This document shows positions 900 through 33,000 of a DNA stretch of 40,511 bases, piece after piece. The position numbers and the translations under genes are program-made. Below the pieces are notes generated by a model. That model saw only the letters and a program-made list of their open reading frames with translations. It did not search any database and was not told the origin of the DNA. How positions within the stretch are numbered: the stretch's first letter is position 1; each line of letters begins with the position of its first letter. The stretch spans positions 1 to 40,511 of the forward strand of contig DAIPKT010000001.1 of assembly GCA_036769645.1 (NCBI GenBank), given 5' to 3'. This DNA is from a bacterium. Lineage in GTDB: Bacteria; Patescibacteriota; Minisyncoccia; Minisyncoccales; DG-74-1.

Positions 900-2213
900 T
901 CACTCCTTTGCTGGCCGCTTTCTGGTTGCTAAAATTAATTTTATTATTAACCAGAGTAAAATTATTACTACGATAGTTAAAATGGTTGGTAAAAGCCAAG
1001 GATATCTTTCAGTGAAGGGTGGAGGAGGGGGCAAAATTTCCTCAAACAGTGGATTCTTTATCTGAGCTCCTAAAAAGGCCTCGGGGAGATCTTTTATTTC
1101 TAAATAAGGAAAGAGGGCTTCAATATCATACTCAGGATAATGAGCATCTGGATTTCCATAATAAAGTTTGTAATTTTTTAAAGGCTCATATTTAAATAAA
1201 ATTCTTCTCAAAATACCAGAGACAGAGATATCGATAATATTTATTGGTTTATCGTCTTTATTGAAGATTGTCAATTTTAAATAGCGGAAATTTGACTCAG
1301 GATAATCAATTTCTAATTTCGAGCCAGTAAATTTAGCTGTAGAAAAAGAAAAAATGACATCTCGATATTTAACCACTTGCCAATTTTGGTTATCGTTGCT
1401 TCCTTCTAAAGCAACTTCTCGGCTAAAATTAACATCAGGCGTACTAATTTTTAGAGAATTACTGGGAAGACCAATACTGCCTAAATCCAAAGTAATAAAA
1501 CTTGTTCTCAATCCTTCATTTATTCCTCTTTCAATTATTTTTAGAGGATAATTAATTTTTCTGGCTACCTTAGCTACCTGGCGATAGACTTCAGCTCCGA
1601 TAATTTTTAATGGCTCTTCTCCTCTTGAAATTATCTTCACTTTTAGATACCGATAAGTTGATTCCGGATAATTCAGAGTTGTATCTTGCTGTTTAAATTC
1701 GAACTCAGGGGGAGAATAATCGTAAATCCGTCCTTTATCATTTAAAACAAACCAATTTTCTTGGTCATTGCTTCCCTCAATAATTACTTCTCTTCTGAAA
1801 TTTATTGAGGTTGTCAAAATTTTAATTTGGTTATGCAAGATTCCAGCCTCTCCAAGATCAGCTATAAAAAATTGATACTCACCAGGAACAAAGCTGAGAT
1901 TTAAAATTTTTGTTCGATGAGATTCCCGAAGATAATATTCTTTTTCAACTAAAAGTTTGTAAGGAATTTCAGAGCCATTGGCTATTACCCTGATATCGCT
2001 TAAATTAGGTTTAGCATTTTCAAAAATCTGACGATCAAAAGGTAAAAGGACATAGCTGGGATAAAAAACCCCCTCTAATTCTATTTTTTTCTCATATCGC
2101 CATTTTTTAATATCGAAATCAGCCAAAGATGGAGTTAAATTTGCTAAGAAGAGAAAAGGAATTAAAAAAATGCCAAAAAATATTATTTTTAGAAAATTTT
2201 TGTTGAAAATCAT
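900..2213 (-). CDS. Surface-anchored repeat protein, DUF3999-like
   Basis: N-terminal signal/TM segment. Two internally similar beta-rich modules ('REVIIEGSNDQENW' and 'REVALEGSNDNQNW'). Proline run and a C-terminal TM anchor. ATGA overlap with the upstream DUF2339-like gene. The family name is from memory of the DUF2339/DUF3999 pairing and is unverified. Confidence 0.45.
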   Translation of the reverse strand: MIFNKNFLKIIFFGIFLIPFLFLANLTPSLADFDIKKWRYEKKIELEGVFYPSYVLLPFDRQIFENAKPNLSDIRVIANGSEIPYKLLVEKEYYLRESHRTKILNLSFVPGEYQFFIADLGEAGILHNQIKILTTSINFRREVIIEGSNDQENWFVLNDKGRIYDYSPPEFEFKQQDTTLNYPESTYRYLKVKIISRGEEPLKIIGAEVYRQVAKVARKINYPLKIIERGINEGLRTSFITLDLGSIGLPSNSLKISTPDVNFSREVALEGSNDNQNWQVVKYRDVIFSFSTAKFTGSKLEIDYPESNFRYLKLTIFNKDDKPINIIDISVSGILRRILFKYEPLKNYKLYYGNPDAHYPEYDIEALFPYLEIKDLPEAFLGAQIKNPLFEEILPPPPPFTERYPWLLPTILTIVVIILLWLIIKLILATRKRPAKE

Positions 2214-4258
2214 GGTTCCAGTAAAAATTCTTTTATTTTATGACGAAATCTTAAATAGAGATAGCCAGTGATGAGTAAAATTATCCCAAGAGTAATATAA
2301 GAACCAATCCGGTACAACTCTGCTAACCTCCAAGTATCATAGAGAAAGACTTTAAAAACCATCAGCCATAAAAAGGTCAAACCTAAGACTCTTATTGGTG
2401 GATATTTCAGAAATATTCCCAGGCAAATTATGATTATTGAATAAACTGACCAGATAAAAGATAAATAGAAATTTTGGGCTAAAGTTAAATCTTTTCCTGG
2501 GACATCATAAAAGACAAGTTTTCCCATAATCAATCCAATAAGAATCAAACCAGCAAGCTGAATGGGTTTATATTTTTTAAGAATTCCTACTAAGGATAAA
2601 ATTATTGCATATAAGCCCCAGAGAAGAGAGATTGAAAGATTTCGGAGAAATTGTAGATTTTTTATTTTCTCAAAATCTATTCTGACACACTCTTGAGGGA
2701 AGTAACCCCTTCGATAATACCTCAGACACCTTTCATAATCGTAAATACTTATTTCCTTTGGTTTTCTCAATTCGGCGATTTTTCCATCAAAATATCTTAT
2801 AATTTCATTGCTCAAAATCCAAAGGCTGAGGAAGTTAGCCGAAAGCAAAAGGAAAGGCAAAACAAATTTCTCTTCAACTTTTATTTCTTTTTGACCTAGC
2901 CACCAGATATAAGAAGCTAAATAAAAAGCTAAAATGCTGACAAAGAAGGCGAAAAACCTTTTATTAAAAATCGGAGTGAATTCTTCAATCCTTTCTTCCC
3001 AGGCCATATCAAATCCCAAAAGCCTGATTATCACTAACAAAAAGAGCAAAAGAGAAAAGGCTCTTAGATGATAGCTTTTCAAATAAAAACCTAACCAAGA
3101 AAGAACTACTGCTTCTGCCGCCCAGGCAATAGTAATCCAATATTGTTTCAATTGAATTGGAATGGCAATTGTTAGAAAAACTAAAGAAATTCCAGCTAAA
3201 AATAAAGTTAAATTAGGGTCTTTTAGTTTTCTCAAATAAGTAAGGTAAGCAAGGATGCAATAAAAGAAGGCCAAAATTACAGCGAAAAATCCCATCCAAT
3301 TCCGGTAATCCTTTACCAAAATCCCATAGCTCCAGCTAAAATAGATTGCGGCATTCATTGTCATTAAAGCCAAATCTGGCCATTCAGCTTTTCTTTTCTG
3401 AATGAAATGGTAAAAAATGGTGATGAAGGAAAAGAGGAGGAAAAAGATGGTTAAAACAAATTCGGTATAGGCAAGTTTTTCTGGTTTATAAAGAGCGGCA
3501 AACCAGGCTCCGAAGGAAAGATAGGTGAAAAGAAATCCACTAAAAGAAAGGAGTCGCCAATTTTTAAATGAAGATATGGCCAAAATTCCCAAATTCAAAA
3601 GAACAATATAGGCAAAAATGATATTTTGGTTAGCTGCGATATTTTTCACTCCTAACATAAAGGGAGTGAAAAAACCACCAACAATTCCTATAAAGGCAAT
3701 AGGGAGAGCATCATATCTCAAAGATAAAACTCCGGCTGTTAGGGTGACAATAATCATGAAGGCAAAGGCCGGAGCTAAATCAATGAGTTGATATAAATTG
3801 AAGGCAGCGAAGATTGATAAATATAAAATAGCAATTCCGCCACCAGTTAAGGCCTGGCTATATTTTCGATAGCGGTCTTTCAAATATTCGCCAAGAGTAA
3901 TTAAGATTATCCCGGCAGCAAGGCCAGCAATTACTCTACCAGTTGGACCCATACCCCATCTATCAATAGCATATTTTAAGAAAAATCCTATTCCAATTAT
4001 TATCGCTGCTATTCCCACTTTCACCAGCCAATTCCCACTCATTATTGTTTCTAAATTTATTATCTTTTTTGGCAAAGGAACTTCAGGCGCTTTCTCATAA
4101 GGTGGTGGTGGAGGCGGAACAGGAGGATAAAGAGGTGAAGGCAGGCCCTCTTCTAATTTTTTAACCCTCAATTTTTGATCCTCCAATTCTTCTTTCAATC
4201 TCTCAATTTCCTTTCTTAATTCTTCTATTTTTTGAATCAACTCATTATCTGGATTCAT
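2210..4258 (-). CDS. Polytopic membrane protein, DUF2339-like
   Basis: 682 aa. N-terminal coiled coil (LKEELEDQKLRVKKLEE), a proline-rich linker (PPVPPPPPPY), then about 20 hydrophobic helices. This architecture matches my recollection of DUF2339. Confidence 0.55.
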   Translation of the reverse strand: MNPDNELIQKIEELRKEIERLKEELEDQKLRVKKLEEGLPSPLYPPVPPPPPPYEKAPEVPLPKKIINLETIMSGNWLVKVGIAAIIIGIGFFLKYAIDRWGMGPTGRVIAGLAAGIILITLGEYLKDRYRKYSQALTGGGIAILYLSIFAAFNLYQLIDLAPAFAFMIIVTLTAGVLSLRYDALPIAFIGIVGGFFTPFMLGVKNIAANQNIIFAYIVLLNLGILAISSFKNWRLLSFSGFLFTYLSFGAWFAALYKPEKLAYTEFVLTIFFLLFSFITIFYHFIQKRKAEWPDLALMTMNAAIYFSWSYGILVKDYRNWMGFFAVILAFFYCILAYLTYLRKLKDPNLTLFLAGISLVFLTIAIPIQLKQYWITIAWAAEAVVLSWLGFYLKSYHLRAFSLLLFLLVIIRLLGFDMAWEERIEEFTPIFNKRFFAFFVSILAFYLASYIWWLGQKEIKVEEKFVLPFLLLSANFLSLWILSNEIIRYFDGKIAELRKPKEISIYDYERCLRYYRRGYFPQECVRIDFEKIKNLQFLRNLSISLLWGLYAIILSLVGILKKYKPIQLAGLILIGLIMGKLVFYDVPGKDLTLAQNFYLSFIWSVYSIIIICLGIFLKYPPIRVLGLTFLWLMVFKVFLYDTWRLAELYRIGSYITLGIILLITGYLYLRFRHKIKEFLLEP

Positions 4259-4275
4259 GTTTCATTTCTATAATA

Positions 4276-4773
4276 TCAAAATCTTCTAAAAATTAAAAGG
4301 ATAAGAAAGAAAAGTCCAATAAGGATCAGGGGCAAGATTAAAGAGAATAAAAAGCCTCTGGCCAGATATTTTCTTTTCCTCCAGAAATAAAAAATTCCAA
4401 AAATTTGAATTCCTAAAATAGCGAGAAGAAAGATCCGAAACAAGCTAAAGAAATACCTAAAGGGATAAAAAGGATAAATAAAAGCTGATAGAATCCCAAG
4501 AAGAAAATATATACCCAAACCAAATATAGCTGGGGTGAAAAATCCAGCTAAAAAATCTAAAAGCTTTTCCCTAAAAGTTTTATAAATTTTTATACTTTTG
4601 AAATCCCAAAAGCTAATCTTTTCCTTTGGCACAAATCCCTCGTAAACTATTCTTATTCCTTCTTCAATTTGATCTTTTGGATAGCTCGCCTCAATTAATT
4701 TTCTCTTCAAGACTTCTTGGGGAAATTTATTTTTGTTTTCTCTGAGATAATTTATAATTCTTCGATCAACCAT
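4276..4773 (-). CDS. Hypothetical membrane protein (soluble N-domain plus 3-4 TM helices)
   Basis: 165-aa ORF in operon register, 4 nt downstream of the activase stop. The C-terminal half is hydrophobic. Confidence 0.6.
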   Translation of the reverse strand: MVDRRIINYLRENKNKFPQEVLKRKLIEASYPKDQIEEGIRIVYEGFVPKEKISFWDFKSIKIYKTFREKLLDFLAGFFTPAIFGLGIYFLLGILSAFIYPFYPFRYFFSLFRIFLLAILGIQIFGIFYFWRKRKYLARGFLFSLILPLILIGLFFLILLIFRRF

Positions 4774-4777
4774 ATTT

Positions 4778-5743
4778 TTATTGAGGATTTAGATTTGACC
4801 ATTTTCCACATCTGTCTCCCCATCTGGCAATGACCTTTCCTTCAATTCTAGCCTCAATCACCTCGCAATGATTTGGACAGCTCTGGCATTGAAAAGAGGT
4901 ACATCTGATATCTTTATCTGAAATTTCAAAACCTAAAAATTTTGTTTTTGGAGAAGGATTTTCCTTAGCCAATAAAGCCACCCCAAATGCTCCCATTACT
5001 TTATTATAGGAAGGAACAATAATTTTTTGGCCCAGAGCCTCCTCAAATGCCTTTCTCATTCCAATATTTTCTGAAACTCCACCCAAAAAAACAATTGGAG
5101 GTTTTATATTTTTTCCTCTGGCAACATTGTTTAAAAAATTCCTGACCAAGCCTTGACAGAGACCGGCAACAATATCATGGGTCGGATGACCAATCTGCTG
5201 TTTATGAATCATGTCTGACTCGCTGAAAACAGTACATCTGGCTCCTATTGTTGTTGGGTTCTTTGATTTTAAAGCCAACTCGCCAAATTTTTCAACTGGA
5301 ATTTTTAATCGAAAGGCCTGAGCATCTAAAAAGGCACCTGTTCCGGCAGAACAGATGAGATTTAATGCAAAATCAACCACCACTCCATTTTCTAAAATGA
5401 TAATTTTCGAATCCTGGCCACCAATTTCAATCACGGTTCGAACATCAGGAACAAAATGAGTCACTCCCTTAGCATGGGCAGTAATTTCATTTTTGATCAC
5501 ATCGGCCCCGGTAATCACTCCGGTTAAATATCTGGCTGAGCCAGTGGTACCTAGGCTAGCAATCTCAACTTCTGGATTATGAGCCTGAATAAAATTTTTC
5601 AATTCTCTCATTCCTTTTTTGACCGCCTCAATTGGATTTCCTTCGGTCCGAAAATAGGATGAAAACAAAATTTGATTTTTTTCATCAATTAAAACGAATT
5701 TTGTTGAAATGGAGCCAACATCAATGCCTAAATATGTCTTCAT
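4778..5743 (-). CDS. BadF/BadG/BcrA/BcrD-type ATPase (2-hydroxyacyl-CoA dehydratase activase-like) with C-terminal Cys-rich tail
   Basis: ASKHA-fold motifs 'LGIDVGSISTK', 'EIGGQDSK' and 'NLICSAGTGAF'. C-terminal 'CTSFQCQSCPNHC'. 4-nt overlap with the upstream gene. Confidence 0.85.
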   Translation of the reverse strand: MKTYLGIDVGSISTKFVLIDEKNQILFSSYFRTEGNPIEAVKKGMRELKNFIQAHNPEVEIASLGTTGSARYLTGVITGADVIKNEITAHAKGVTHFVPDVRTVIEIGGQDSKIIILENGVVVDFALNLICSAGTGAFLDAQAFRLKIPVEKFGELALKSKNPTTIGARCTVFSESDMIHKQQIGHPTHDIVAGLCQGLVRNFLNNVARGKNIKPPIVFLGGVSENIGMRKAFEEALGQKIIVPSYNKVMGAFGVALLAKENPSPKTKFLGFEISDKDIRCTSFQCQSCPNHCEVIEARIEGKVIARWGDRCGKWSNLNPQ

Positions 5744-7842
5744 GATTTTTTATGTTGATGATAATTTTTAACAACATCAATAAAGGCCTCAAGTCGAGTA
5801 TCAATTCCAGCTTCGGCTACTTGCTCATCTAGAGAAAGTGATAAAAATGGAATTCCGCTTTCCTGATGAATTTTCTCTAAAATCGGCCGAACCGTCACCT
5901 CGGGCATACAATTTCTCGCAATTAGAAAATTCGCAACATAGGAATGATCATCTTTGACTGTCAAATTATAAACTTTCCCTTTAAAAATAAACCACTCTAT
6001 TTTACGAATGGGAACTAAAAAATAATTTTTCAATTCTCTGTGTTTGATAAATGGTTTTCTATCGGTTACTTTGATTTTTTCATCGCCTAATCTTTTTATT
6101 TCGTGAGCGGTGGCTATCTTAAGCATATAAGAAAGTTTTTTATCTTTAATATTCTGTTCCATAAATGATGGTTTGATTCGATTCCGTATCAGAAGCCAGA
6201 ATAATTGACTTGCTAAGTTTCGGGAGGTGGTTACTCCTCGATAAGTAGTCTCTCCATATTCGTCTCTGAAATTACCATCTCCTCTAAAAAATCCTTTTAA
6301 AATTTCTTTTTGTAAATTGGGTTCGAGAGTCATTAAATCATTGTGAAGTAATTTTTGATCACAATTCCTGGTTCTAAAATTTCTCTTAATTATATCAATA
6401 ACATCATTAATATATTTTCTCTCCCGAGGAGAAAAATCAAAATCGATGCCTCTTATATATCTTTTATTTTTTTCAGTATCATAACGGATTGAGCCTTCAG
6501 CTAACCAATAACCAAGCATTCTAAGTAAGTCTGGTGAGTAAGGAAACTGCTTGATCTCTTCCCATTTAGGTGCTCTCGTATACTCTTTTTGCAATTCAAA
6601 ACAACTTGAGCTCTTCACTTCCTTCGGAATTGGAATAGCAACAAAATCTCCTCTCTTAGCTTGATAAGCTGGAGTAAACTTTGGGTTTTTAATTTCTTTT
6701 GTCCAACTTCCCTTAAGTGTAGTTTTTACTAGTAAAATTGGATGTTCGGGAGTAACTGAAATTGTTAATAATTTTCCACCACAATCTATTTTTAATATTG
6801 GCCCTTGATAATTCCGACACCACTTATGGGTTACTTTTTTGAATCTTCCTTTATGAGTTAGAACTTTTTCTCCGACTTTTATTTCTTGAATTGGTTTTTG
6901 TAAATAACCTTCAACAGTGATATTAGTATCTTTGATAAAACAGCCAAAGGGAAGTAGATGAATTATCCCATCAAAATCTTCTTTAATATATTTTAGCATT
7001 TCGTAAATGGCGTCTCTTCCATGGCCGCCAACAGTTGATTTTAAATAGGGATTAATTTTTCTCTGAATTGTCCAGTCCTTCCAGGGGAAAATCAATTTTT
7101 TCAAATGGTAAATGAGACCCATTTCCCGATGGACCTCAATTCCTTCCAGGCCCAATTTTCTTTCTATTTCGAAATTTATTGCCGAGTCACAGACAGTATA
7201 AATTTCTCCAACCAAACCTACTTTTGGCAGATCATCCTTTTTCTCTATTTTAATTTCTCTCAATTTTCTTAAAGCCTCTTTTTTGAATTTCGAAAAATCT
7301 TTCTCTTTATTTATTTTTTCTAATTCTGAGAAAATCTCAGTTAACAATCTATCAGTTTTACCCTTCTCTACCTCCCTTGGCCTTAAATATTGAGCCATTC
7401 TCTCAATTTTTTCAATTAGTCCCAATTTTTTAAAGAAAAATCGGCCGGTTTTTATTATCTGCCAGAAGGAAGCGCCAGAAATTTTTTTAATTGCCCGATA
7501 AATATCTTTTGGAGTAGCCCGGAAATCTAAAAAATTAATATCATGACCAGCTTCTTTTAAAACTTTTTCTTGAATTGCTCCATAATATCTTTGTCGACAA
7601 GAACCGCCAACATTCTGAACCATAAAAACGGTATTAGCTCCTTTTTTTAGAGCTGGCAAATAATTTCCCAGGGTGACCTTCATTGGAAAACAATACATTT
7701 CGGGAGCAATTTTCGCTCCCTCGGCAATGGTCTGAGAGGTTGTTTTCTCTGGAGGAATAACTTCAAGACCCAATTGTTCAAATAGGGTCTTGAAAGCAAT
7801 AGTATAATTTCCAAATCTGGCAAAAGTAATTATTGGTTTCAT
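5740..7842 (-). CDS. Acyl-CoA dehydratase activase-related protein (DUF2229/HgdB-like), interrupted by one intein
   Basis: The extein sequence (~356 aa) has 'PEMYCFPMK', 'GGSCRQRYY' and 'HLLPFGC|MPEVTV'. Residues 301-644 are an intein. Confidence 0.75.
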   Translation of the reverse strand: MKPIITFARFGNYTIAFKTLFEQLGLEVIPPEKTTSQTIAEGAKIAPEMYCFPMKVTLGNYLPALKKGANTVFMVQNVGGSCRQRYYGAIQEKVLKEAGHDINFLDFRATPKDIYRAIKKISGASFWQIIKTGRFFFKKLGLIEKIERMAQYLRPREVEKGKTDRLLTEIFSELEKINKEKDFSKFKKEALRKLREIKIEKKDDLPKVGLVGEIYTVCDSAINFEIERKLGLEGIEVHREMGLIYHLKKLIFPWKDWTIQRKINPYLKSTVGGHGRDAIYEMLKYIKEDFDGIIHLLPFGCFIKDTNITVEGYLQKPIQEIKVGEKVLTHKGRFKKVTHKWCRNYQGPILKIDCGGKLLTISVTPEHPILLVKTTLKGSWTKEIKNPKFTPAYQAKRGDFVAIPIPKEVKSSSCFELQKEYTRAPKWEEIKQFPYSPDLLRMLGYWLAEGSIRYDTEKNKRYIRGIDFDFSPRERKYINDVIDIIKRNFRTRNCDQKLLHNDLMTLEPNLQKEILKGFFRGDGNFRDEYGETTYRGVTTSRNLASQLFWLLIRNRIKPSFMEQNIKDKKLSYMLKIATAHEIKRLGDEKIKVTDRKPFIKHRELKNYFLVPIRKIEWFIFKGKVYNLTVKDDHSYVANFLIARNCMPEVTVRPILEKIHQESGIPFLSLSLDEQVAEAGIDTRLEAFIDVVKNYHQHKKS
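5911..6942 (-). mobile_element. Intein (344 aa) with LAGLIDADG homing endonuclease, inserted in the DUF2229-family protein
   Basis: Starts with Cys1 ('CFIKDTNITVEG'). Block B 'TPEH'. LAGLIDADG motifs 'LGYWLAEGS' and 'LKGFFRGDGN'. Block F/G 'VYNLTVKDDHSYVANFLIARN' is followed by +1 Cys. The flanks rejoin as PFG-CMPE. Confidence 0.85.
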
Positions 7843-8604
7843 TTTTGGTATTCTGCCTCACATTCATCAATCATTCTTTCCACATCTCTTTCATCCTTAA
7901 CATCCTAACATGTATAAAAAAACTGTCAAATTCTTGTCTCTCTCTTAGCTATAATGATACTGAAGGCTTTAGAGAGAATAGAGTTTGGGCATTTAAGAAG
8001 GTAAAGGCAGTTTGGAAAGAAAGGAGAAAGCTCTCTAAAATTAAGGTTAAAGGTGTAATCCCTTTAACCAAGCAAGATGGAAAGAGATTGCTGATATAAA
8101 GAGAACCTGGCTTTAGAGATTTAAATTATCTTTTCAATAATTCAGATTTCTTCCTAGGTAGCAATATCAGTTGTCCATCACTAACCAGAATTAGATTTCT
8201 TGGCTGGTTCTACTCTAAAAACTGCTCTTTTGGGCTCAGGGCAGAATGAAGAGACTGAATTCAATGCTCCTCAATTAGGTCCTTTTGAGAGAACTTGTCA
8301 GAACTTCTGGAAGTCATTAGGAGTTGAGAGAAAGCTAAATAAGTTAAGTCAGAATTAGGCTTTATTAAATTAAAAACTTAATGCGTAATAAGAATTAGGG
8401 CAATTTTGGGCAAATTTTGGCAGGATTTTACGAATAAAATTGAGGTAAAGAGAGCTAAAATTTGTGGAAAACCTTATTACGCATTATCTTTATTGGTGAA
8501 GAGAGAAATTTATTCAAAACCTTATTTTATTATGGCTTTATCAAAAGAGGGGTGTCAAGGGCAAGGAGTTGAAAAAAATAAAAATTTGAGTTAAAATTTG
8601 GTCT

Positions 8605-13179: not shown

Positions 13180-14072
13180 CTCAAATTAAAAAAGCGGTTG
13201 TTCCAATAGCTGGTCTGGGGACAAGATTTTTGCCTTTAAGTAAGGTTTTACCAAAAGAACTTTTCCCTTTGGTTGATAAGCCAGTTTTACAATATATCAT
13301 TGAAGAAGCAGTAGCCTCTGGAATCAAAGAAATTATTTTTGTGATTAGACCGAAGAGAAAAGAGGTTTTAACTTACTTTAAGAAATATTTCAAAAAAACA
13401 CCAGAGTTAGAAGAAATTTTAAAAAAAAGAAAAAGGAATCACCTCTTAAAAGAGTTAAAAAAACTTGAAAAAATTTCGAAAAATATTTCCTTTTGGCATG
13501 TCTTCCAGAGAAAACCCTTGGGAGCCAGTCATGCTATTTTGCAAGCTGAAAAGTTAATTAAAAATGAACCCTGTGCAGTTTTATATGGTGATGATATCGT
13601 GGAATCTAAAGTTCCCTGTCTTTGGCAACTAATTGAAATTTTCAAGAAATATCAAAAACCAGTAATTGCTCTTTACCGAATTCCTAAAGAAAGTTTCCGA
13701 TTTTATGGAATGGTTGAAGTAAAGAAAATTGCCAAGCGTCTTTATAAAATCAAGAAGGTAGTGGAGAAGCCTTCAATTACTGAAGCTCCCTCCAGTTTGG
13801 CAGTGGTTGGAAAGCATATTATCACTCCTGAAGTTTTTGACCACTTAAAAAAAACCTCTTTTGATTTAAAGAAGGATCTAACTTTAAGTACAACTTTAAG
13901 CGAAATGGCAGAGGCTGGGAAAGAGGTTTATGGCTACGAATTTGAAGGAAAGTGGTTAGAGTGCGGAAATAAATTAGCCTATTTAAAATCAAATCTCTAT
14001 CTTTCTCTAAAACATCCTCAATTTGGCAAAGAACTTAGAAAAGAGATTAGGCGGACGTGGTGGAACTGGTAG
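13176..14072 (+). CDS. galU: UTP--glucose-1-phosphate uridylyltransferase
   Basis: 'AVVPIAGLGTRFLPLSKVLPKELFPLVDKPVLQYIIEE' and 'VEKP'. The last 7 codons and the TAG stop lie inside the tRNA-Leu gene. Confidence 0.88.
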   Translation: MTQIKKAVVPIAGLGTRFLPLSKVLPKELFPLVDKPVLQYIIEEAVASGIKEIIFVIRPKRKEVLTYFKKYFKKTPELEEILKKRKRNHLLKELKKLEKISKNISFWHVFQRKPLGASHAILQAEKLIKNEPCAVLYGDDIVESKVPCLWQLIEIFKKYQKPVIALYRIPKESFRFYGMVEVKKIAKRLYKIKKVVEKPSITEAPSSLAVVGKHIITPEVFDHLKKTSFDLKKDLTLSTTLSEMAEAGKEVYGYEFEGKWLECGNKLAYLKSNLYLSLKHPQFGKELRKEIRRTWWNW

Positions 14073-14134
14073 TCACGATAGCTTCAGGAGCTATTGGGAG
14101 AATTCCCGTGAGAGTTCGAATCTCTCCGTCCGCA
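14051..14134 (+). tRNA. tRNA-Leu (anticodon CAG), class II long variable arm, CCA not encoded
   Basis: Hand fold: acceptor GCGGACG/CGTCCGC; D arm GTGG..TCAC with GG in the loop; anticodon stem ATAGC/GCTAT; loop TTCAGGA; variable arm GGGA/TCCC; T arm GAGAG-TTCGAAT-CTCTC; discriminator A. Confidence 0.9.
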
Positions 14135-14136
14135 CA

Positions 14137-15816
14137 ATGAAAAAACAACAAATTCTTAAAATTATACCTCTCGGAGGATTAGGTGAGGTTGGTCGGAATA
14201 TGATGCTCCTTGAGTATAAAAGGATAATTTTAGTTATTGATATGGGTTTCCGTTTACCAGAAGAAGATATGCCAGGAATCGATTACATCATTCCCAATAT
14301 TGAATACTTAAAAGAGAAAGAAAAAAATATTTTAGGGATTCTCTTTACCCATGGTCACTATGACCACATTGGCGCTGTTCCCTATTTGATTGAACGAATC
14401 TGGCATCCCAATTTAAGAATTTTCGCTTCTCCTTTAACTCGGGGAATAATTTTAAAAAGGCAGGAAGATTTTCCTCAACAGCCAAAATTAGAAATAACTG
14501 AAGTGAAAGATGGCTCGAGAATAAAATTGGGTCCTTTTAGAATTGAATTTCTTAGATTAAATCATAATATTCCAGATAATTTAGGATTGTTTATTGAAAC
14601 CCCGGTTGGTAATATTTTCCATACCTCTGATTTCAAATTTGATCCCAGTCCAGTCAATGATTTACCAACCAATTTTCAGAAATTAAAAGAAATTGGGAAA
14701 AGAAAAATTTTGCTCATGATGTCAGACTCAACTGGAGCAGAACAAGAGGGTCATTCCCTTTCAGAAAAAACGATTGAGAAAAATTTGGCTGAGATCTTTA
14801 AAAAAGCAGAAGGCAGAATTATTGCCGCCACTTTTGCTTCACTCATTAATCGAATTCAGCAAATTATCACCCTTTCAGAAAAATATCAAAGAAAAGTAAG
14901 CCTGGAAGGTTATTCAATGAAAACCAATGTTGAAATTTCAAAGATTTTAGGATATCTCAAGGCAAAAAAAGGAACGATAATTGAGGGAAAAGAAATTCTA
15001 AACTATCCAGATAAAATTCAAACTATTCTCTGTACCGGAGCTCAGGGAGAAGCCGAGGCGGTTTTAATGAGAATTGCTAACCGGGAGCATCCTTATTTAA
15101 AAATAAAAAAGGGAGATACAGTAATTTTTTCCTCTTCGGTCATTCCTGGAAATGAAAGAACAGTCCAGATTATGAAAGATGAAATTTTAAGACAAGGGGC
15201 GAGGATTTTTCATTACAAAATGATGGATATCCATGCCGGTGGCCATGCCCAAAGAGAAGAACTAAGAAAGATGATAAAAATTATGAGGCCGAGATTTTTC
15301 TTTCCTATCCATGGCCAATATTCAATGTTGGTCAGCCATGCTGAGTTAGCTAAAGAAATGGGGCTTTCAGAAAAAAATGTCATTTTAGCTGAAAATGGCC
15401 AGATTATTAATCTAAATCCAAAGAAAATCTTTATTGAAAAAGAAAAAGTTCCTTCAAATTATATCATGGTTGATGGTTTAGGAATTGGCGATGTTGGAGA
15501 AATAGTTTTAAGGGACCGTCAGATGTTGGCCAAAGATGGAATGTTTGTCATTGTGGCAGTGGTTGATAGACAAACTGGCAAGGTCAGGGGCTCTCCTGAT
15601 ATAATCTCAAGAGGATTTGTCTATTTAAGAGAATCAAAGGAATTGCTTAGAGAAACAAGAAAAAGGGTAATTGGAATTGTTGATAAAGCAGCTGGTTCGG
15701 GAGGAGCAGTCAATTGGGTCTTTATCAAAGATGAAATCAGAAACAAAATCGGCCAATTCTTGTTTTCCAAAACTCAGAGACGTCCAATGATTTTGCCAGT
15801 TGTTATTGAGGTATAA
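14137..15816 (+). CDS. rnj: Ribonuclease J
   Basis: Metallo-beta-lactamase/beta-CASP motifs 'FTHGHYDHIGA', 'TSDFKFD', 'HAGGHA' and 'FFPIHGQY'. Start moved to ATG 14137 because the track's upstream extension (14023..) reads through the tRNA. Confidence 0.9.
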   Translation: MKKQQILKIIPLGGLGEVGRNMMLLEYKRIILVIDMGFRLPEEDMPGIDYIIPNIEYLKEKEKNILGILFTHGHYDHIGAVPYLIERIWHPNLRIFASPLTRGIILKRQEDFPQQPKLEITEVKDGSRIKLGPFRIEFLRLNHNIPDNLGLFIETPVGNIFHTSDFKFDPSPVNDLPTNFQKLKEIGKRKILLMMSDSTGAEQEGHSLSEKTIEKNLAEIFKKAEGRIIAATFASLINRIQQIITLSEKYQRKVSLEGYSMKTNVEISKILGYLKAKKGTIIEGKEILNYPDKIQTILCTGAQGEAEAVLMRIANREHPYLKIKKGDTVIFSSSVIPGNERTVQIMKDEILRQGARIFHYKMMDIHAGGHAQREELRKMIKIMRPRFFFPIHGQYSMLVSHAELAKEMGLSEKNVILAENGQIINLNPKKIFIEKEKVPSNYIMVDGLGIGDVGEIVLRDRQMLAKDGMFVIVAVVDRQTGKVRGSPDIISRGFVYLRESKELLRETRKRVIGIVDKAAGSGGAVNWVFIKDEIRNKIGQFLFSKTQRRPMILPVVIEV

Positions 15817-27066: not shown

Positions 27067-30000
27067 TTAAAGAGTTTTTGGAATTTTAAATTCTTTTCTC
27101 TGCCTAAATTCTTGTTGTTTCCCAAGATTCCATTGAGAAATTGGCCTGAGATAGCCAACTATTCGAGAATAAACTTCGCAAGGCTGTCTGATTGGACATC
27201 TCGGACATTCAAAATGTTCTCCTTCTAAATAGCCATGGCTAGGACAAATACTATTGCCTGAGAAATTCGGTTTATTATTTCGTCTTACATAAATAACATG
27301 ATTAGGAACCTCTACACAATAAACATAACCAGAGTACTTCACTTTATGTTGAATCTCTTTTAAATAAGTGTACTTATGAGTTCTTTTTGTTACTATTCCT
27401 TTATTATCTAAAATTGAAGCATCAAAACCAATCTTAAGATAAATTTCCTGAAGATCGTCTCTTAAGCGTTTAGAAAAAGAAGAGCAATAATTAGTTCCTT
27501 TAATTCCATCTCCTTTAAGATACCATTCTAAGAATAATCGGAGCATTTTAGGAGGTAACATTTTTAATTCTTGGGGAATGTATTTAGTTCTAGAGTTGCC
27601 AAATTGGGTTAAATAATGCCAAAGTTGCTTATTGTGAATATGGAAGCCCTGGGATGATTCTGAAAATTTAAAGGGTAATTCTTTTAACATTTCTCTAATT
27701 TCATCTCTTGTTTTACCATGCTTTTTCTGGGTAATCACTATTTCGGGTTTATAAGCTGCATCTCCTCCTTTAGATCCTCTGACCGACCCTTCGGCTATCC
27801 AAATTCCAAAAAACTTCAACCAGTTACTCATCGGAATTTTTATTGCTGAATAATTTTCCACTATGCCTCTCTTTCTATTTTTAACCATGGAAACAAAAGA
27901 TGGCGAGCAATTAACTAATGCCGCAATCTCTGCTTGGGTTTTATTTTCATATTCGTTTAATAACTTTTTGATTTCTGTAGTTAGTATTGTTTTATTATTT
28001 ATTACACTTGGCAAAATAAAAAATTCTTGCATTTTGCCTTTCCATTTATAACCTGTCATTGGAACTTTATCTATGCTACTAATATCTTTTGCCTTTACAA
28101 AATAATATATTTTTGTGCTTTTTATAAATTTCCCTGTTTTAGGATCTCTCATTATGACTTTTTTGCCCGAGACAAACATTCTATGGTCAGGTGTTACCAT
28201 ACAATCAAATGCTTTACTTTTAAAATGAATCATTATCCCTTGATAAGGAAATTTAAATCTGCGCAACGGTTCTTGATAACTTAATTCTTTTGTCTCTGGA
28301 TTTGCCGTTAATACCTTCTCTCCTTCTTTAAGTTCACTAAACCTTTTCCATCCGTTTTCGGTTAAAATTTCTGTCTTCTCGTCGTAACAAAAAGTCGGAG
28401 TAAGGGTGATATAAGGCAATTTGAAATTCTCAAAAATTTTTTTAATTAAATTTTTCACTGTTTGAATATCAGAAATTCTTTCCCCTAAGAAGAGATGCAA
28501 AACAGTATTGTGGATAAATACCAAACAATTTTTTCCTGCCAAATAATTGTGATTCTTTTTGGTCATCAAATCATAAAATTGATTATCTTTGACATCAATC
28601 TTTGAGACATTTTTTACTCTTACTACTGGGAGATGTCGTTTTTTTCGATTGGATATTTTTTCTTTAATTAATTTAGGATTAACTGTAACTTCAAGCTTAT
28701 CTTTTATCATGGTTAATTGATAGGCAGGAATTCTTAATCTCCAAATGTTAACTTCATTTTTTCTTTTTGTTTTCTTTAAAGACTTACTAATCATTATTCC
28801 TGCTTTGACACATATTTCTAAAATATCTTCTGCTAATTTAGGAGAGACACTCTGGTATTCAAAGTCGCCATCTCTTTTAGAGATAGTTCCATCACTATCC
28901 ATCAAACCTGATAGGAAGGCAAATATATTATTTTTATTTAAATTTTCTTTTACTTTTTGAGGAATGCAAACATCGTAAACTTTCTCCCCGGGTTTGAAAC
29001 CATATTTGAAAAAGAATTCCGAAACTTCTCTTTTAGAAGTAGTTAATTCTCTTTCAGGCTCACTTCTTTTATCATTTTTAATCACTTTGGCTTTTACTCC
29101 GAAGTATTTTGATACGATCTCCTTTGCTTTTTCTAAGGCTTCTAGATGTTCGCCACTAAAGCGAACTTTATATTTCTTCAAATTGTTTCCGCCTCTATTA
29201 TCAATGAATTCTGAAATACAACCATCTCCAATAAAAAATCCAATAAGCCACATTAAATCACTATTCAATTCTGGTGATATCTCTGGATATAAATTATGAA
29301 AATTCTGTAAAATATAATCACCCACTTTAAGTTCGTCGGCTCTTTTCTCTATAACTCTATATTTCGGAAGAAGCTTATATCTTTTTCGACATTCAGGGTG
29401 ATATCTTAGGTGAGCAGGAAAAGCTTTTATAGCCCCTAATTTCTCTTCACAGACTGGACAGGTAGGATTTGGTTTAATTTTTTCTAAGACGAAAAATGGA
29501 TGCCAATCAGAAGTTGTTATATCTAAATTTCTTTCTCCTTTTATTCGAATTTTATTATATTTTTTTACATCAATAGAAACTGCCTTTATAATCTCATCCC
29601 ATTCGCTAATTCCTTTTTCTTTGTTATAGCTTAGAGCTTTAATCGGTTTCAATTTCTCAAAATTCTCTACAATAAATTCTATTGGGAATAAACCTTTATC
29701 AGTTAGAACTTTATTACCTCTCTCGATACATCCCCCTGTGTATTTTGTTTGCAATTCATCCTGGAGTTTTAAGGCCTCAAAAATATCATCGGTATAGTTT
29801 ACTGGAAGTTGGGAGCTATTAGTATAAAAGGGAACTTTTTTTGTTCCGGCTGTGATAATATTTGGATATTTTTCTTTATCTTTTAGGCAAAGCCTATAAG
29901 CACAGCTCTCAGCCGGTGTCGCCTCTAAATTATAGAGGTTTCCAGTTTCTTTCTGATATTTTACCAATCTTTCTCGCATAAAATCTAAAACCTCTAAAGC

Positions 30001-33000
30001 AAATCTCCTTCCTCTTTTTGAAGCAATATTTTCTCCAATAAAGTTCAAAAGGGCTTCATTCATTCCAACCAAGCCAATGGTTGAGAAATGATTTCCATAA
30101 TAACTGCCTCTCATTTTTTTTACTCCTTCTAAATAAACTTTGGAATAAGGATATAAACCTTTTTCAATCAGATTTTCCAAGACTTTTCTTTTGATTTCCA
30201 AAACCTCCTTTGCCAAATCCATCACCTTTCCTAATCTCTCAAAAAATTCTTTTTTGGTTTTTGAAAGATAACCAATTCGAGGTAGATTGACGGTGATAAC
30301 GCTGATTGAACCAGTGTTAGCCCCCGAACCGAACAATCCTCCCCCACCCCGATTGTAGAGTTCACGCAGATCGAGCTTAAGCCGGCAGCAATTAAAAGTG
30401 ATTTGGCCTAAAGAGTGGACAAAAAGATGGTTTTTTTCTAATTCTAGATCGTAAAATTCCCTTATCTGATTATAATTTCGAATTCTTGTCTCTTTCGCTC
30501 TCACTAAATAAATATCACTATTTTTAATTTTTAAACTTTCATTAGTATGAGCATTATATTTCTCTAAAGTATTGAATCCCACCATTCTTGATTTTCTAAG
30601 ACCAGGAACTTTAGTAGTGGAAACTGCCATCCAGCCTGGGATCCTTTCGGCCAAAATTGGGTTATTCATCCATCTGCTATTCCTTTTTAGTTTTGATTTC
30701 GAATGTTGTAAATAAATTACTTGACTTCTCTTTTTCAATCGGTAAGTTACTGGTTGACCAATCAAAGAGAGGAGTAAAACTAAATCTCGAGATAATTCTA
30801 AATCATTGAGGTGAATTTCTCTTCTTTTCTCATATCCATCTCCTTTGAAATAGAGAGCAAGAAAATTTTTAATAACATTTGCTGGACTATCGAATAAAAT
30901 TTGAGGTAACCTTCCACATTTTTTAAATCCGGCATTATATAATTTTCTAGCTAAGTTTGAATTATAAACATAAAGGTAGTAAGTATTATATCGAGGGTCT
31001 TGCTTTTCTTTACTCTTCAAGCCAAAAGTTTTTTTAATTAATGATTTAATTGTATTTAAGTTTTCAAAATCTCCAGTTTTAAAAGAAAATTGTATTCCTC
31101 TTGGCTCACCATAATGAGTGTAACCTTTTCTATTTTCAAAAAGATAATTTCCATCGGCTACAAAATAACCCAAAATTTTTGCTAAATTTTCTTCTAAGAT
31201 AAGATCTTCAATTTTCTGATATTCTTTGGATAAAATATTATCATTTACTCTTTTGAGTACTAAAAGATAATCTCCTTTTTGAATATCTTTGGCAAATTTC
31301 ATTTTGATTCCCTCTGGAGTATAAACTGGTACCGGATGTTTTAAAGAGAATATTGCTTCTTTCCCATCCTCAGTAGTAATTTCTACTCCTTTGCTATCTA
31401 GGATCTTTAAAAATCTTTTTACCGGCGACCATTCTAGTTTTAAAGTCTCTGGATTCAATGATAAAACTTCTAACTTTCCTGTTTTTCTACAGTCTGCCCA
31501 ACCTTCTTTATCAAATTCTTTTACTTTATAATTTTCAGCTATTTCTTTAATTGGGGCTCTTTTTATCCTCTTTGAATTTCTGATTAAAATCTCTTCATTT
31601 CCGTCGAGACACATTGCCCTCGCTTCCTCCGGTTTCATATCTGAGTTAATGTAATTGGCGAAATAATTTATGCCATATTTTGCTGAGGTTTCAAAGATTC
31701 CATCAAAAGCTGGCTCATCCCAGGGAAAATCTCTGGTAATATTTATAGTTGGGATGGGAAAGGAAAAACTTCTCCCAAATTTATCACCCTCTAACATCGC
31801 CTCATAAAAAGCTCTATTAAAGATTTTCATTTCTTCTTCAAATTCTCCATAGGTTTCTTTTTGGGGCTTTCCACCAATAATTATTGGAAGTTTGGCAAAT
31901 ACCGGCGAAGGTCTAAGATCCAGGGTCAAATTCGAAAAAGGACAATTTCCAGTTATAAAAACTTTTCCTTTTCTCCGGGCAATTATTGTTCCGTTCTCGG
32001 TCTGAGGACACCAAATTATCCCTTCGTAATTTATCCTCTTTATTTTTGTAATATAGGTTTCTGGATGACGAATTATTCTTAGAATATAAATATCCTTTTT
32101 ACCCACAGTTCCTGGAATTGGCTTTTGTCTGCGAACAGTAAAACCATAACCAGCATTAACAATAATCCTCTCTAAGTCATCAAGTAGTCCTAAATCTGAA
32201 GTGGCAATTTTACAATTTTCTTTACCATCTCCTCTTAAATAAGTCTCTAAAAACAACTTTGATTGTCTTGCGCTTAAATTTAGTAAATATTCAGGGATAA
32301 AGTGAACATTTTCTCTTGTCCTAAACCACTGGTGAATTTTCCTAGAGCTTTCTGCATTTAACCTTATCTGTTGGACTTCATCTCCTAAAGATGTTGCTGG
32401 GTGATTAGTGTACTCTAATTTATAACCTTTCAATAAATTAATTATTTCGTCATAATATTTCCTATTTTTAATTTTCGATTGATAAATACTTACTCGGTGG
32501 CAACATCTATACTTCCCTGGTCTCTCCACACTTCCCTCACTTATTATCCAAGCCATTAATTTTATTTGCTCGTCACTGATTTTCGCATCGGGATTTTGAT
32601 TTTTGCCAGCAATAGGAACAATAATTGGAGATTTCAATTTCAGAACATCTTCTATTGGTTCTAAAACATATCTTTGAGTATTAAATTTTTTCCTTAAAAC
32701 TCGGTGTTGAGGAGAAACCAGTTGATCTTGAATTCTATTCATTAATCGATACATTTTCCCTTTATATTTTCTCCTAAAAATAAATTTTACTTTCTTATTT
32801 TCTATTTCTTTAGTTTGGAGATTTAAAGTTTTAATCTCGTCGCCTTCTTTTATTTCATCGTGCTTTTTCCATCCTTCGGGAGTTAATATTTCAGTATCTT
32901 CTGATATACACTGAAACCCTACCCTAGTCGGCGTAGCCATGTTAAACAAAAATTCCTGAAGAGCCTGTTTTACTTGAGGATAGCTTAATCTATCATAACG

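Follow-up and report, generated by a model that had tools for sequence, protein, structure and literature searches.

The interrupted gene and the anatomy of its insert

The window examined here is a 40,511-nucleotide stretch from a bacterium of the Patescibacteriota (assembly GCA_036769645.1, contig DAIPKT010000001.1, positions 1 to 40,511). On its reverse strand lies a gene for a protein of the DUF2229/HGD-D family that is interrupted by a class-1 intein with a LAGLIDADG homing-endonuclease domain. We describe this intein, its insertion site and its relatives. The host protein is the 'B' subunit (DUF2229 plus HGD-D fold) of an uncharacterised two-component iron-sulfur (Fe-S) system with an ATP-dependent activase, a system related to benzoyl-CoA reductase, 2-hydroxyacyl-CoA dehydratase and the double-cubane cluster protein (DCCP). 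The gene consists of the following parts; a caret marks a splice or deletion point throughout.

5740 to 7842, reverse strand: host gene for the DUF2229/HGD-D protein ('B' subunit), intein included; an open reading frame for a 700-amino-acid precursor.
6943 to 7842, reverse strand: N-extein, precursor residues 1-300, ending ...DGIIHLLPFG and containing the invariant Cys51 and Cys82; from the translation and the orthologue alignment.
5911 to 6942, reverse strand: intein, 344 amino acids, precursor residues 301-644; from motifs, profiles, alignments and Foldseek.
5740 to 5910, reverse strand: C-extein, precursor residues 645-700 with the stop codon; its first residues are CMPEVTVRPILEK and its homologue is the C-terminal part of HGD-D.

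Joining the flanks gives a spliced extein of 356 amino acids in which the junction HLLPFG-CMPEV is the family consensus; the C-extein opens CMPEVTVRPI and the predicted ligated-extein junction peptide is ...HLLPFGCMPEVTVR. In Pfam searches the precursor matched DUF2229 (50.6 bits) together with intein domains, and the spliced extein matched both DUF2229 (53.1 bits, cutoff 29.4) and HGD-D (31.6 bits, cutoff 28.4). The N-extein is 85% identical to an orthologue with an empty site at locus L074, and the C-extein aligns to residues 310-371 of HadC (3o3m_B) and to DCCP (6eno, 7yyl). A first-pass annotation of this DNA had placed a 344-amino-acid intein at 5911-6942, in a DUF2229/acyl-CoA-dehydratase-activase-related protein of about 356 amino acids and exactly at a conserved cysteine motif. 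We confirmed each of these points, as the reverse-strand translation of 5911 to 6942 matches the described intein and its motifs exactly, the spliced sequence passes the DUF2229 and HGD-D thresholds, and the junction reads HLLPFG^...^CMPEV.

The intein begins CFIKDTN and ends FLIARN, and its motifs follow in the order CFIKDTNITV...ISVTPEHPILL...LGYWLAEGS...LKGFFRGDG...KVYNLTVKDDHSYVANFLIARN. They were located as follows.

6913 to 6942, reverse strand: block A, CFIKDTNITV, with Cys1, the N-terminal splicing nucleophile, at 6940-6942; identified by motif.
6730 to 6762, reverse strand: block B, ISVTPEHPILL, containing the T-x-x-H motif, intein residues 61-71; identified by motif.
6043 to 6630, reverse strand: LAGLIDADG homing-endonuclease domain, about intein residues 105-300, with approximate bounds; identified by LAGLIDADG_3 and Foldseek.
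6487 to 6528, reverse strand: LAGLIDADG motif 1, LLRMLGYWLAEGSI, with an acidic Glu and WLAEGS, intein residues 139-152; identified by alignment.
6352 to 6381, reverse strand: junction of a 32-amino-acid in-frame deletion, NFRTR^NCDQK; identified by alignment against full-length alleles.
6268 to 6303, reverse strand: LAGLIDADG motif 2, ILKGFFRGDGNF, with an acidic Asp and FFRGDG, intein residues 214-225; identified by alignment.
5908 to 5976, reverse strand: blocks F and G, KVYNLTVKDDHSYVAN-FLIARN, plus the +1 Cys; identified by motif, TIGR01443 and alignment to 2jmz.

The terminal Asn344 is encoded at 5911-5913 and the +1 Cys at 5908-5910. Alignment of the eight same-site inteins showed that Cys1, T64, P65, E66 and H67 are invariant in all of them, and each of the two LAGLIDADG helices carries an acidic residue (Glu in LGYWLAEGS, Asp in LKGFFRGDG). 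Two profiles matched above their cutoffs, LAGLIDADG_3 (26.0 bits, cutoff 22.5) and TIGR01443 intein_Cterm (21.1 bits, cutoff 15.6). The intein frame has no stops in 344 codons of DNA with 32% G+C content and the other five frames contain 20-33 stops; the chance of such an open frame from base composition is about 6e-14. An AlphaFold2 (AF2) model of the intein, built from eight aligned sequences, had a moderate predicted local distance difference test score (pLDDT 61). With this moderate-confidence model Foldseek matched many inteins through the Hint fold at probability 1.00, and the best matches were TliVMA, PI-SceI, PhoVMA and PI-PfuI (E = 3e-12 to 7e-7).

These four solved inteins, PI-SceI (Sce VMA1) among them, share with the block at precursor residues 301-644 a split Hint domain, a two-motif LAGLIDADG endonuclease between blocks B and F, and Cys1...Asn^Cys chemistry. 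They are only 11-16% identical to it and their hosts are V-ATPase and ribonucleotide reductase; unlike them, the window copy is short of about 32 amino acids in its first endonuclease half, and its penultimate residue is Arg. The sole solved protein found by sequence (E = 2e-4) was the Methanocaldococcus jannaschii KlbA intein (MJ0781, 2jmz), in which blocks B and F/G align, including ...VYDLTVEDNHTYIA. KlbA differs in being an archaeal mini-intein without an endonuclease in another host protein, and it starts with Ala, not Cys. The architecture described here is that of many known inteins and involves no new mechanism.

Empty and occupied sites and the probable spread of the intein

We searched 5.8 billion proteins with the extein and found 1261 homologues, whose source names included Patescibacteria, Parcubacteria, Nealsonbacteria and Paceibacterales. 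Site occupancy was scored in the best 120 of these, which are 68-89% identical to the host. In 119 of the 120 the site is empty, the proteins being 353-380 amino acids long with an uninterrupted PFGCMPE-type motif; the sole occupied one, P0020, carries a 176-amino-acid mini-intein at the same point. The closest relative with an empty site, P0001 (locus L074), is 89% identical, and the L074 DNA at the site is identical to the joined flanks of the window at 57 of 72 positions; this empty allele supplies a candidate target sequence for the homing endonuclease. With the site unoccupied in nearly all orthologues, the block cannot be a native domain of the family, in agreement with its first-pass annotation as an insertion.

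This result also bears on whether the block could be a bacterial intein-like (BIL) domain, another kind of Hint domain or a native inserted domain, a reading to which weak, sub-threshold Pfam matches to Hint, Vint, PT-HINT and Hint_2 lend something. BIL domains are Hint domains without an endonuclease, usually without the pair of Asn and +1 nucleophile, and lie in variable regions of their hosts. The block in the window, by contrast, has a C-terminal Asn and a +1 Cys, contains a LAGLIDADG endonuclease and is inserted precisely in a highly conserved motif, and its best structural matches are bona fide inteins. The Pfam matches in question all fall below threshold and cover the Hint fold that these domains share. 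We reject a BIL or native domain on account of the Asn^Cys junction, the presence of an endonuclease and the orthologues with an empty site, and assign it a negligible probability.

We looked for occupied sites by searching with the intein alone, by scanning one genome of each species and by searching all against the library. The homologous inteins share the junction LLP(F/L/A)(G/S/F)^C...N^CMPE and their hosts are Patescibacteria and Dehalococcoidia. They fall into three size classes.

Full-length inteins at the same site, 366-383 amino acids: P0121, P0122, P0123, L001, P0145 and L003/L004 (Dehalococcoidia).
Partly deleted inteins at the same site: the window copy, 344 amino acids; L002, 313 amino acids.
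Mini-inteins at the same site, 161-201 amino acids: P0020, P0127, P0129 and P0130.

P0146 and P0147 are likewise occupied, and P0151 is a truncated example. The endonuclease segment of about residues 105-300 is the part that the mini-intein alleles lack in alignment, with deletion boundaries that differ from allele to allele, suggesting that the endonuclease was lost independently. The empty sites together with the series of full-length, deleted and mini alleles point to a homing cycle of invasion, endonuclease decay and then either a mini-intein or loss. We hold this reading as a whole, comprising the intein, its host site and the homing cycle, with high confidence. The public alleles, which include empty, full-length, partly deleted and mini forms and a cross-phylum transfer, make a compact example of such a cycle, and their natural mini-inteins, with a Cys +1 junction, form a set ready for use.

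The earlier suggestion that this may be a new intein allele stands in part. Full-text literature searches found no paper linking inteins to the DUF2229/HGD-D host family or to Patescibacteria, and the main text of the survey by Novikova et al. 2016 names no such intein host (PMC4760082). The allele itself is present many times in public data, and the Joint Genome Institute (JGI) pipeline has labelled two fragments of it 'intein/homing endonuclease'. The allele has thus been sequenced before but not described. Through it the intein catalogue gains a host family and an insertion site not described so far, the host being a subunit of a metabolic Fe-S enzyme in Patescibacteria, whose inteins are essentially undiscussed in the searchable literature.

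We compared the divergence of intein and host between the window and L001 using nonsynonymous (dN) and synonymous (dS) rates. These were dN 0.16 and dS about 1.3 for the endonuclease, dN 0.16 and dS 0.69 for the N-terminal part of the Hint domain, and dN 0.245 and dS about 1.5 for the N-extein; the C-extein had a ratio of nonsynonymous to synonymous differences (pN/pS) of about 0.12. The intein thus appears to be under purifying selection and, if anything, to be less diverged than the host gene. In the Dehalococcoidia allele L003 the extein is 29% and the intein 43% identical to those of the window, and in P0130 the extein is 31% identical and the mini-intein 42% (BLAST, covering 30% of the query) or 50% over the A1 alignment. 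The better conservation of the intein than of the host in such distant pairs, together with its lower dN, suggests horizontal spread, not vertical co-descent. Endonuclease-mediated homing would have brought the intein into the conserved coding sequence that surrounds its +1 Cys, and horizontal transfer may have carried it through Patescibacteria and as far as Dehalococcoidia. The G+C content is 0.30-0.32 in this intein and in four further inteins of the window, which lie in NrdD, and 0.35-0.38 in the exteins.

BLASTP with the window intein ranked its relatives. Same-site alleles from Patescibacteria scored 382-510 bits and the Dehalococcoidia allele 280 bits, followed by inteins of the partner activase (211-219 bits) and inteins of SufB, IscU and DnaG (98-138 bits). 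The NrdD inteins scored 23-35 bits at 19-25% identity. Their positions are as follows.

27067 to 33735, reverse strand: NrdD precursor, 2222 amino acids, with four inteins and a 707-amino-acid extein; open reading frame.
31945 to 32910, reverse strand: NrdD intein 1, precursor residues 276-597, +1 Cys.
30391 to 31611, reverse strand: NrdD intein 2, precursor residues 709-1115, +1 Cys.
28507 to 29730, reverse strand: NrdD intein 3, precursor residues 1336-1743, +1 Thr.
27253 to 28389, reverse strand: NrdD intein 4, precursor residues 1783-2161, +1 Ser.

The NrdD inteins share with the window intein their genome, Cys1, LAGLIDADG domains in the precursor and a lower G+C content than their exteins, and are only remotely related to it. 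NrdD inteins 1 and 4 share 27-39% identity with each other, and their motifs had been taken in the first-pass annotation to resemble those of the window intein and to suggest spread within the genome. The strings WLAEGS and FFRGDG belong to the generic kind of LAGLIDADG motif, and the low scores and identities give no support to a recent intragenomic spread from the NrdD inteins.

The cysteine at the insertion site and at related sites

To place the host protein we used an AF2 model of its 89%-identical intein-free orthologue P0001 (pLDDT 87). The top 15 Protein Data Bank (PDB) matches all belong to one superfamily, comprising DCCP, the benzoyl-CoA reductase subunits BzdNO and MbdON, and the 2-hydroxyisocaproyl-CoA dehydratase HadBC, and they span the full length of the protein with E = 4e-9 to 4e-5 and query-normalised TM-scores of 0.47-0.61. 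The model contains the two-domain Rossmann-like fold that is common to HadBC, DCCP and BzdNO. HadBC (3o3m), DCCP (6eno, 7yyl), BzdNO and MbdON thus resemble the host in their full-length fold, in a C-terminal sequence match that includes a Cys, and in that an HgdC-like activase adjoins the host; the host is only 12-16% identical to the solved proteins. The bacterial ether-lipid enzymes PlsA/Ger also carry BcrAD_BadFG, DUF2229 and HGD-D (PMC13159169), the Pfam domains of the host system, fused in Ger and here on separate small proteins. This shared domain set may serve as a lead to the function of the host and is not a result.

Just three Cys are invariant in 56 orthologues: Cys51, Cys82 and Cys301, the last being the +1 Cys of the intein. 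In a PDB profile search, which aligned only the C-terminal ~60 residues of the host, Cys301 aligned with the Cys of HadC '...KFCDPE' and of DCCP '...QFCQPY', and in the P0001 model it lies in a loop between a beta-strand and a helix. Members of the superfamily bind a [4Fe-4S] cluster through a motif of three Cys (PMC7317905), and Cys51, Cys82 and Cys301 would provide three such residues. Cys301 is therefore a probable [4Fe-4S] ligand, the third of the subunit's cluster. The first-pass proposal that the interrupted motif contributes to Fe-S binding is plausible, given the invariance of Cys301 and its alignment with the HadC and DCCP Cys, and is still an inference. Since inteins mark functionally critical residues, the insertion is an independent sign that Cys301 is essential, and the likeliest role for it is that of a [4Fe-4S] ligand.

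Related inteins occur at two other conserved Cys of the same two-component system. P0148 is a distant, 666-amino-acid member of the DUF2229 'B' family with an extein 33% identical to that of the window and a 367-amino-acid intein 43% identical to the window intein. Its intein is inserted before the first invariant Cys (AEMM^C...VVHN^CMPFKVTLG, equivalent to Cys51) and its Cys301 site is empty. The +1 context CMP is common to the Cys51 and Cys301 sites, a hint that the intein jumped from one to the other. The third position is in the partner activase, whose gene in the window is as follows.

4778 to 5743, reverse strand: partner ASKHA 'activase', 321 amino acids, BcrAD_BadFG/TIGR00241; translationally coupled to the host gene.

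The activase matched TIGR00241 with 202 bits. In its alignment to HgdC (1hux) it has a Cys at each of the positions of the two cluster-binding residues, Cys127 and Cys166. In the window its site NLI^CSAGTG, at the equivalent of HgdC Cys127, is empty. Elsewhere in Patescibacteria (L005, L006, P0133-P0137, P0140, P0156, P0184), including the complete Nealsonbacteria genome CP179887.1, it is occupied by an intein of ~417 amino acids that is 36% identical to the window intein and lies directly before the Cys127-equivalent Cys (NLI^C...N^CAAGTG). In L002 both adjacent genes bear inteins, the proteins being 672 and 740 amino acids long with the activase at L002:5119-7341. Thus, one intein lineage is found at three conserved-Cys positions of this system, Cys301, Cys51 and the activase equivalent of Cys127, and the related alleles flag Cys51 and the activase Cys in the same way as Cys301.

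After the same-site and activase alleles, the nearest genomic relatives are inteins in other host families and at other insertion sites. They comprise inteins of SufB (L008, L010, L011, L013, L018, L036), of IscU/NifU-like proteins (L009, L016) and of the DnaG zinc finger (L015, L030, L031, L041). All are 25-32% identical to the window intein over its full length, end in ...(H/G)N^C before the Cys of a conserved motif, and occur in candidate phyla radiation (CPR) bacteria, in DPANN and in other archaea. This distribution suggests that the intein clade favours such Cys sites.

The recurrence of the lineage at these sites could be read as regulation, in that a Cys1/Cys+1 disulfide would block splicing when oxidised, so that the oxygen-sensitive enzyme and its activase would mature only under reducing conditions. 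The two nucleophiles are both Cys, of which the +1 Cys probably serves as a cluster ligand; related inteins precede Cys51 in P0148 and the activase Cys127 position, with both genes occupied in L002, and copies without an endonuclease persist. Stress-sensitive splicing has been proposed for other inteins in the survey cited above (PMC4760082), and splicing of the SufB intein has been studied experimentally in Mycobacterium tuberculosis (PMC8891592). However, most orthologues by far have no intein, and its patchy distribution and series of endonuclease decay are what a purely selfish homing cycle predicts. Selfish inteins generally insert before conserved catalytic or ligand residues, which needs no regulatory role. 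We consider it unlikely that the intein is kept for regulation, and similarly doubtful that one lineage repeatedly colonised the cluster-ligand Cys of one Fe-S system and was kept there as a redox-gated maturation switch.

Predicted splicing, probable endonuclease decay and the gene neighbourhood

If the intein acts as its anatomy predicts, the Hint domain would excise itself after translation, with Cys1 making an N-S acyl shift, the +1 Cys attacking the thioester and Asn344 cyclising to free the intein. The exteins would then be joined as ...HLLPFG-CMPEV..., restoring the conserved motif. The endonuclease of the window copy appears to be in another state. Compared with P0121, P0122, P0123, L001 and L003, the window copy is without 32 amino acids between NFRTR and NCDQK, which correspond to the second beta-hairpin and the following helix of the first endonuclease half. 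In the model of the window intein the first endonuclease half has a single hairpin and the second has two. The complete alpha-beta-beta-alpha-beta-beta-alpha unit that each half contributes to the DNA-binding saddle is thus not present in both halves of the window copy. In L002 the loss is larger (~67 amino acids) and includes the first LAGLIDADG helix. The window endonuclease is a LAGLIDADG member by descent that is probably defective, and probably inactive, since it is short of half of one DNA-binding sheet; this copy has probably lost homing and become immobile. Most likely the homing cycle is well advanced in this copy, which would be competent to splice and no longer mobile.

Several points weigh against the reading of a splicing intein in a working Fe-S enzyme. 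The structural reading of the 32-amino-acid deletion comes mainly from the alignment, the pLDDT of the model being 61. The aligned Cys of HadC and DCCP is itself a putative cluster ligand, as the DCCP review (PMC7317905) gives just a 7-Cys motif and a 2022 PNAS paper just the ligands of the activase. The penultimate residue is Arg343 in place of His, which usually stands there and helps the Asn to cyclise. The Pfam profile Intein_splicing matched with E = 1.2e-7 and 32.1 bits, slightly under its cutoff of 35.8. The Arg and the sub-threshold match together indicate that splicing could be slow or impaired. Finally, a second DUF2229/HGD-D subunit ('A', 323 amino acids), encoded upstream of the B gene at L074, was not found as a gene or remnant in 7843-8604 or in the rest of the window, where the search gave significant matches (E 6e-8, 5e-4) only inside the B gene itself. 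This absence could indicate that the whole system is decaying here.

Taken to its end, such decay would mean a dead intein in a dying gene, with a non-functional 700-amino-acid product and an operon that is being lost from a reduced genome. The replacement of the penultimate His by Arg, the 32-amino-acid internal deletion, and the missing 'A' subunit with a 760-bp non-coding gap upstream would all fit. However, the deletion affects only the endonuclease; splicing does not need this domain, which the mini-inteins at the site lack entirely. Cys1, T-x-x-H, the His of block F, the terminal Asn and the +1 Cys have all been kept. The 2.1-kb frame has stayed open at 33% G+C, with a chance for the intein part alone of ~6e-14, the exteins are 85-89% identical to intact orthologues with a C-extein pN/pS of ~0.12, and the coupled activase is intact. 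The penultimate residue of the relatives is mostly His, but P0123 has Lys and the activase intein of L002 has Ala, suggesting that this position tolerates change in the lineage, and the relatives with Lys or Ala also keep intact genes. A penultimate His is common among inteins and does not define them; inteins without it can splice. The 'A' subunit is also missing from L002, which has the same two-gene arrangement as the window. We regard a dead intein as very unlikely, and conclude, with the open frame and the purifying selection as indirect evidence, that splicing has most likely been retained, perhaps at a slower rate.

The host gene overlaps no other gene at its 5' end, and its stop end shares four nucleotides (ATGA) with the start of the activase gene. 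The upstream region from 7843 to 8604 (760 bp) contains stops in all six frames, and a search of it found no credible RNA gene (Rfam) or notable repeat. The C-terminal ~55 amino acids of the activase (4778 to 5743, reverse strand) are rich in Cys (CTSFQCQSCPNHCEV...WGDRCGKW), extend past the region aligned with HgdC and are kept in relatives; this extension may be an extra metal or cluster site.

The remaining genes of the window are typical chromosomal ones, among them those for FtsZ, FtsA, tRNA synthetases, UvrC, RNase J, ComEC and NrdD. Compared with L074, the window has three genes on the reverse strand at 900 to 4773, between the activase gene and a DUF498 gene (327 to 689), encoding a 165-amino-acid membrane protein, a DUF2339 membrane protein (682 amino acids) and a DUF3999 protein (437 amino acids). 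The RNase J open reading frame (14023 to 15816, forward strand) has a called TTG start that overlaps tRNA-Leu(CAG) (14051 to 14135, forward strand); its true start presumably lies downstream of this tRNA.

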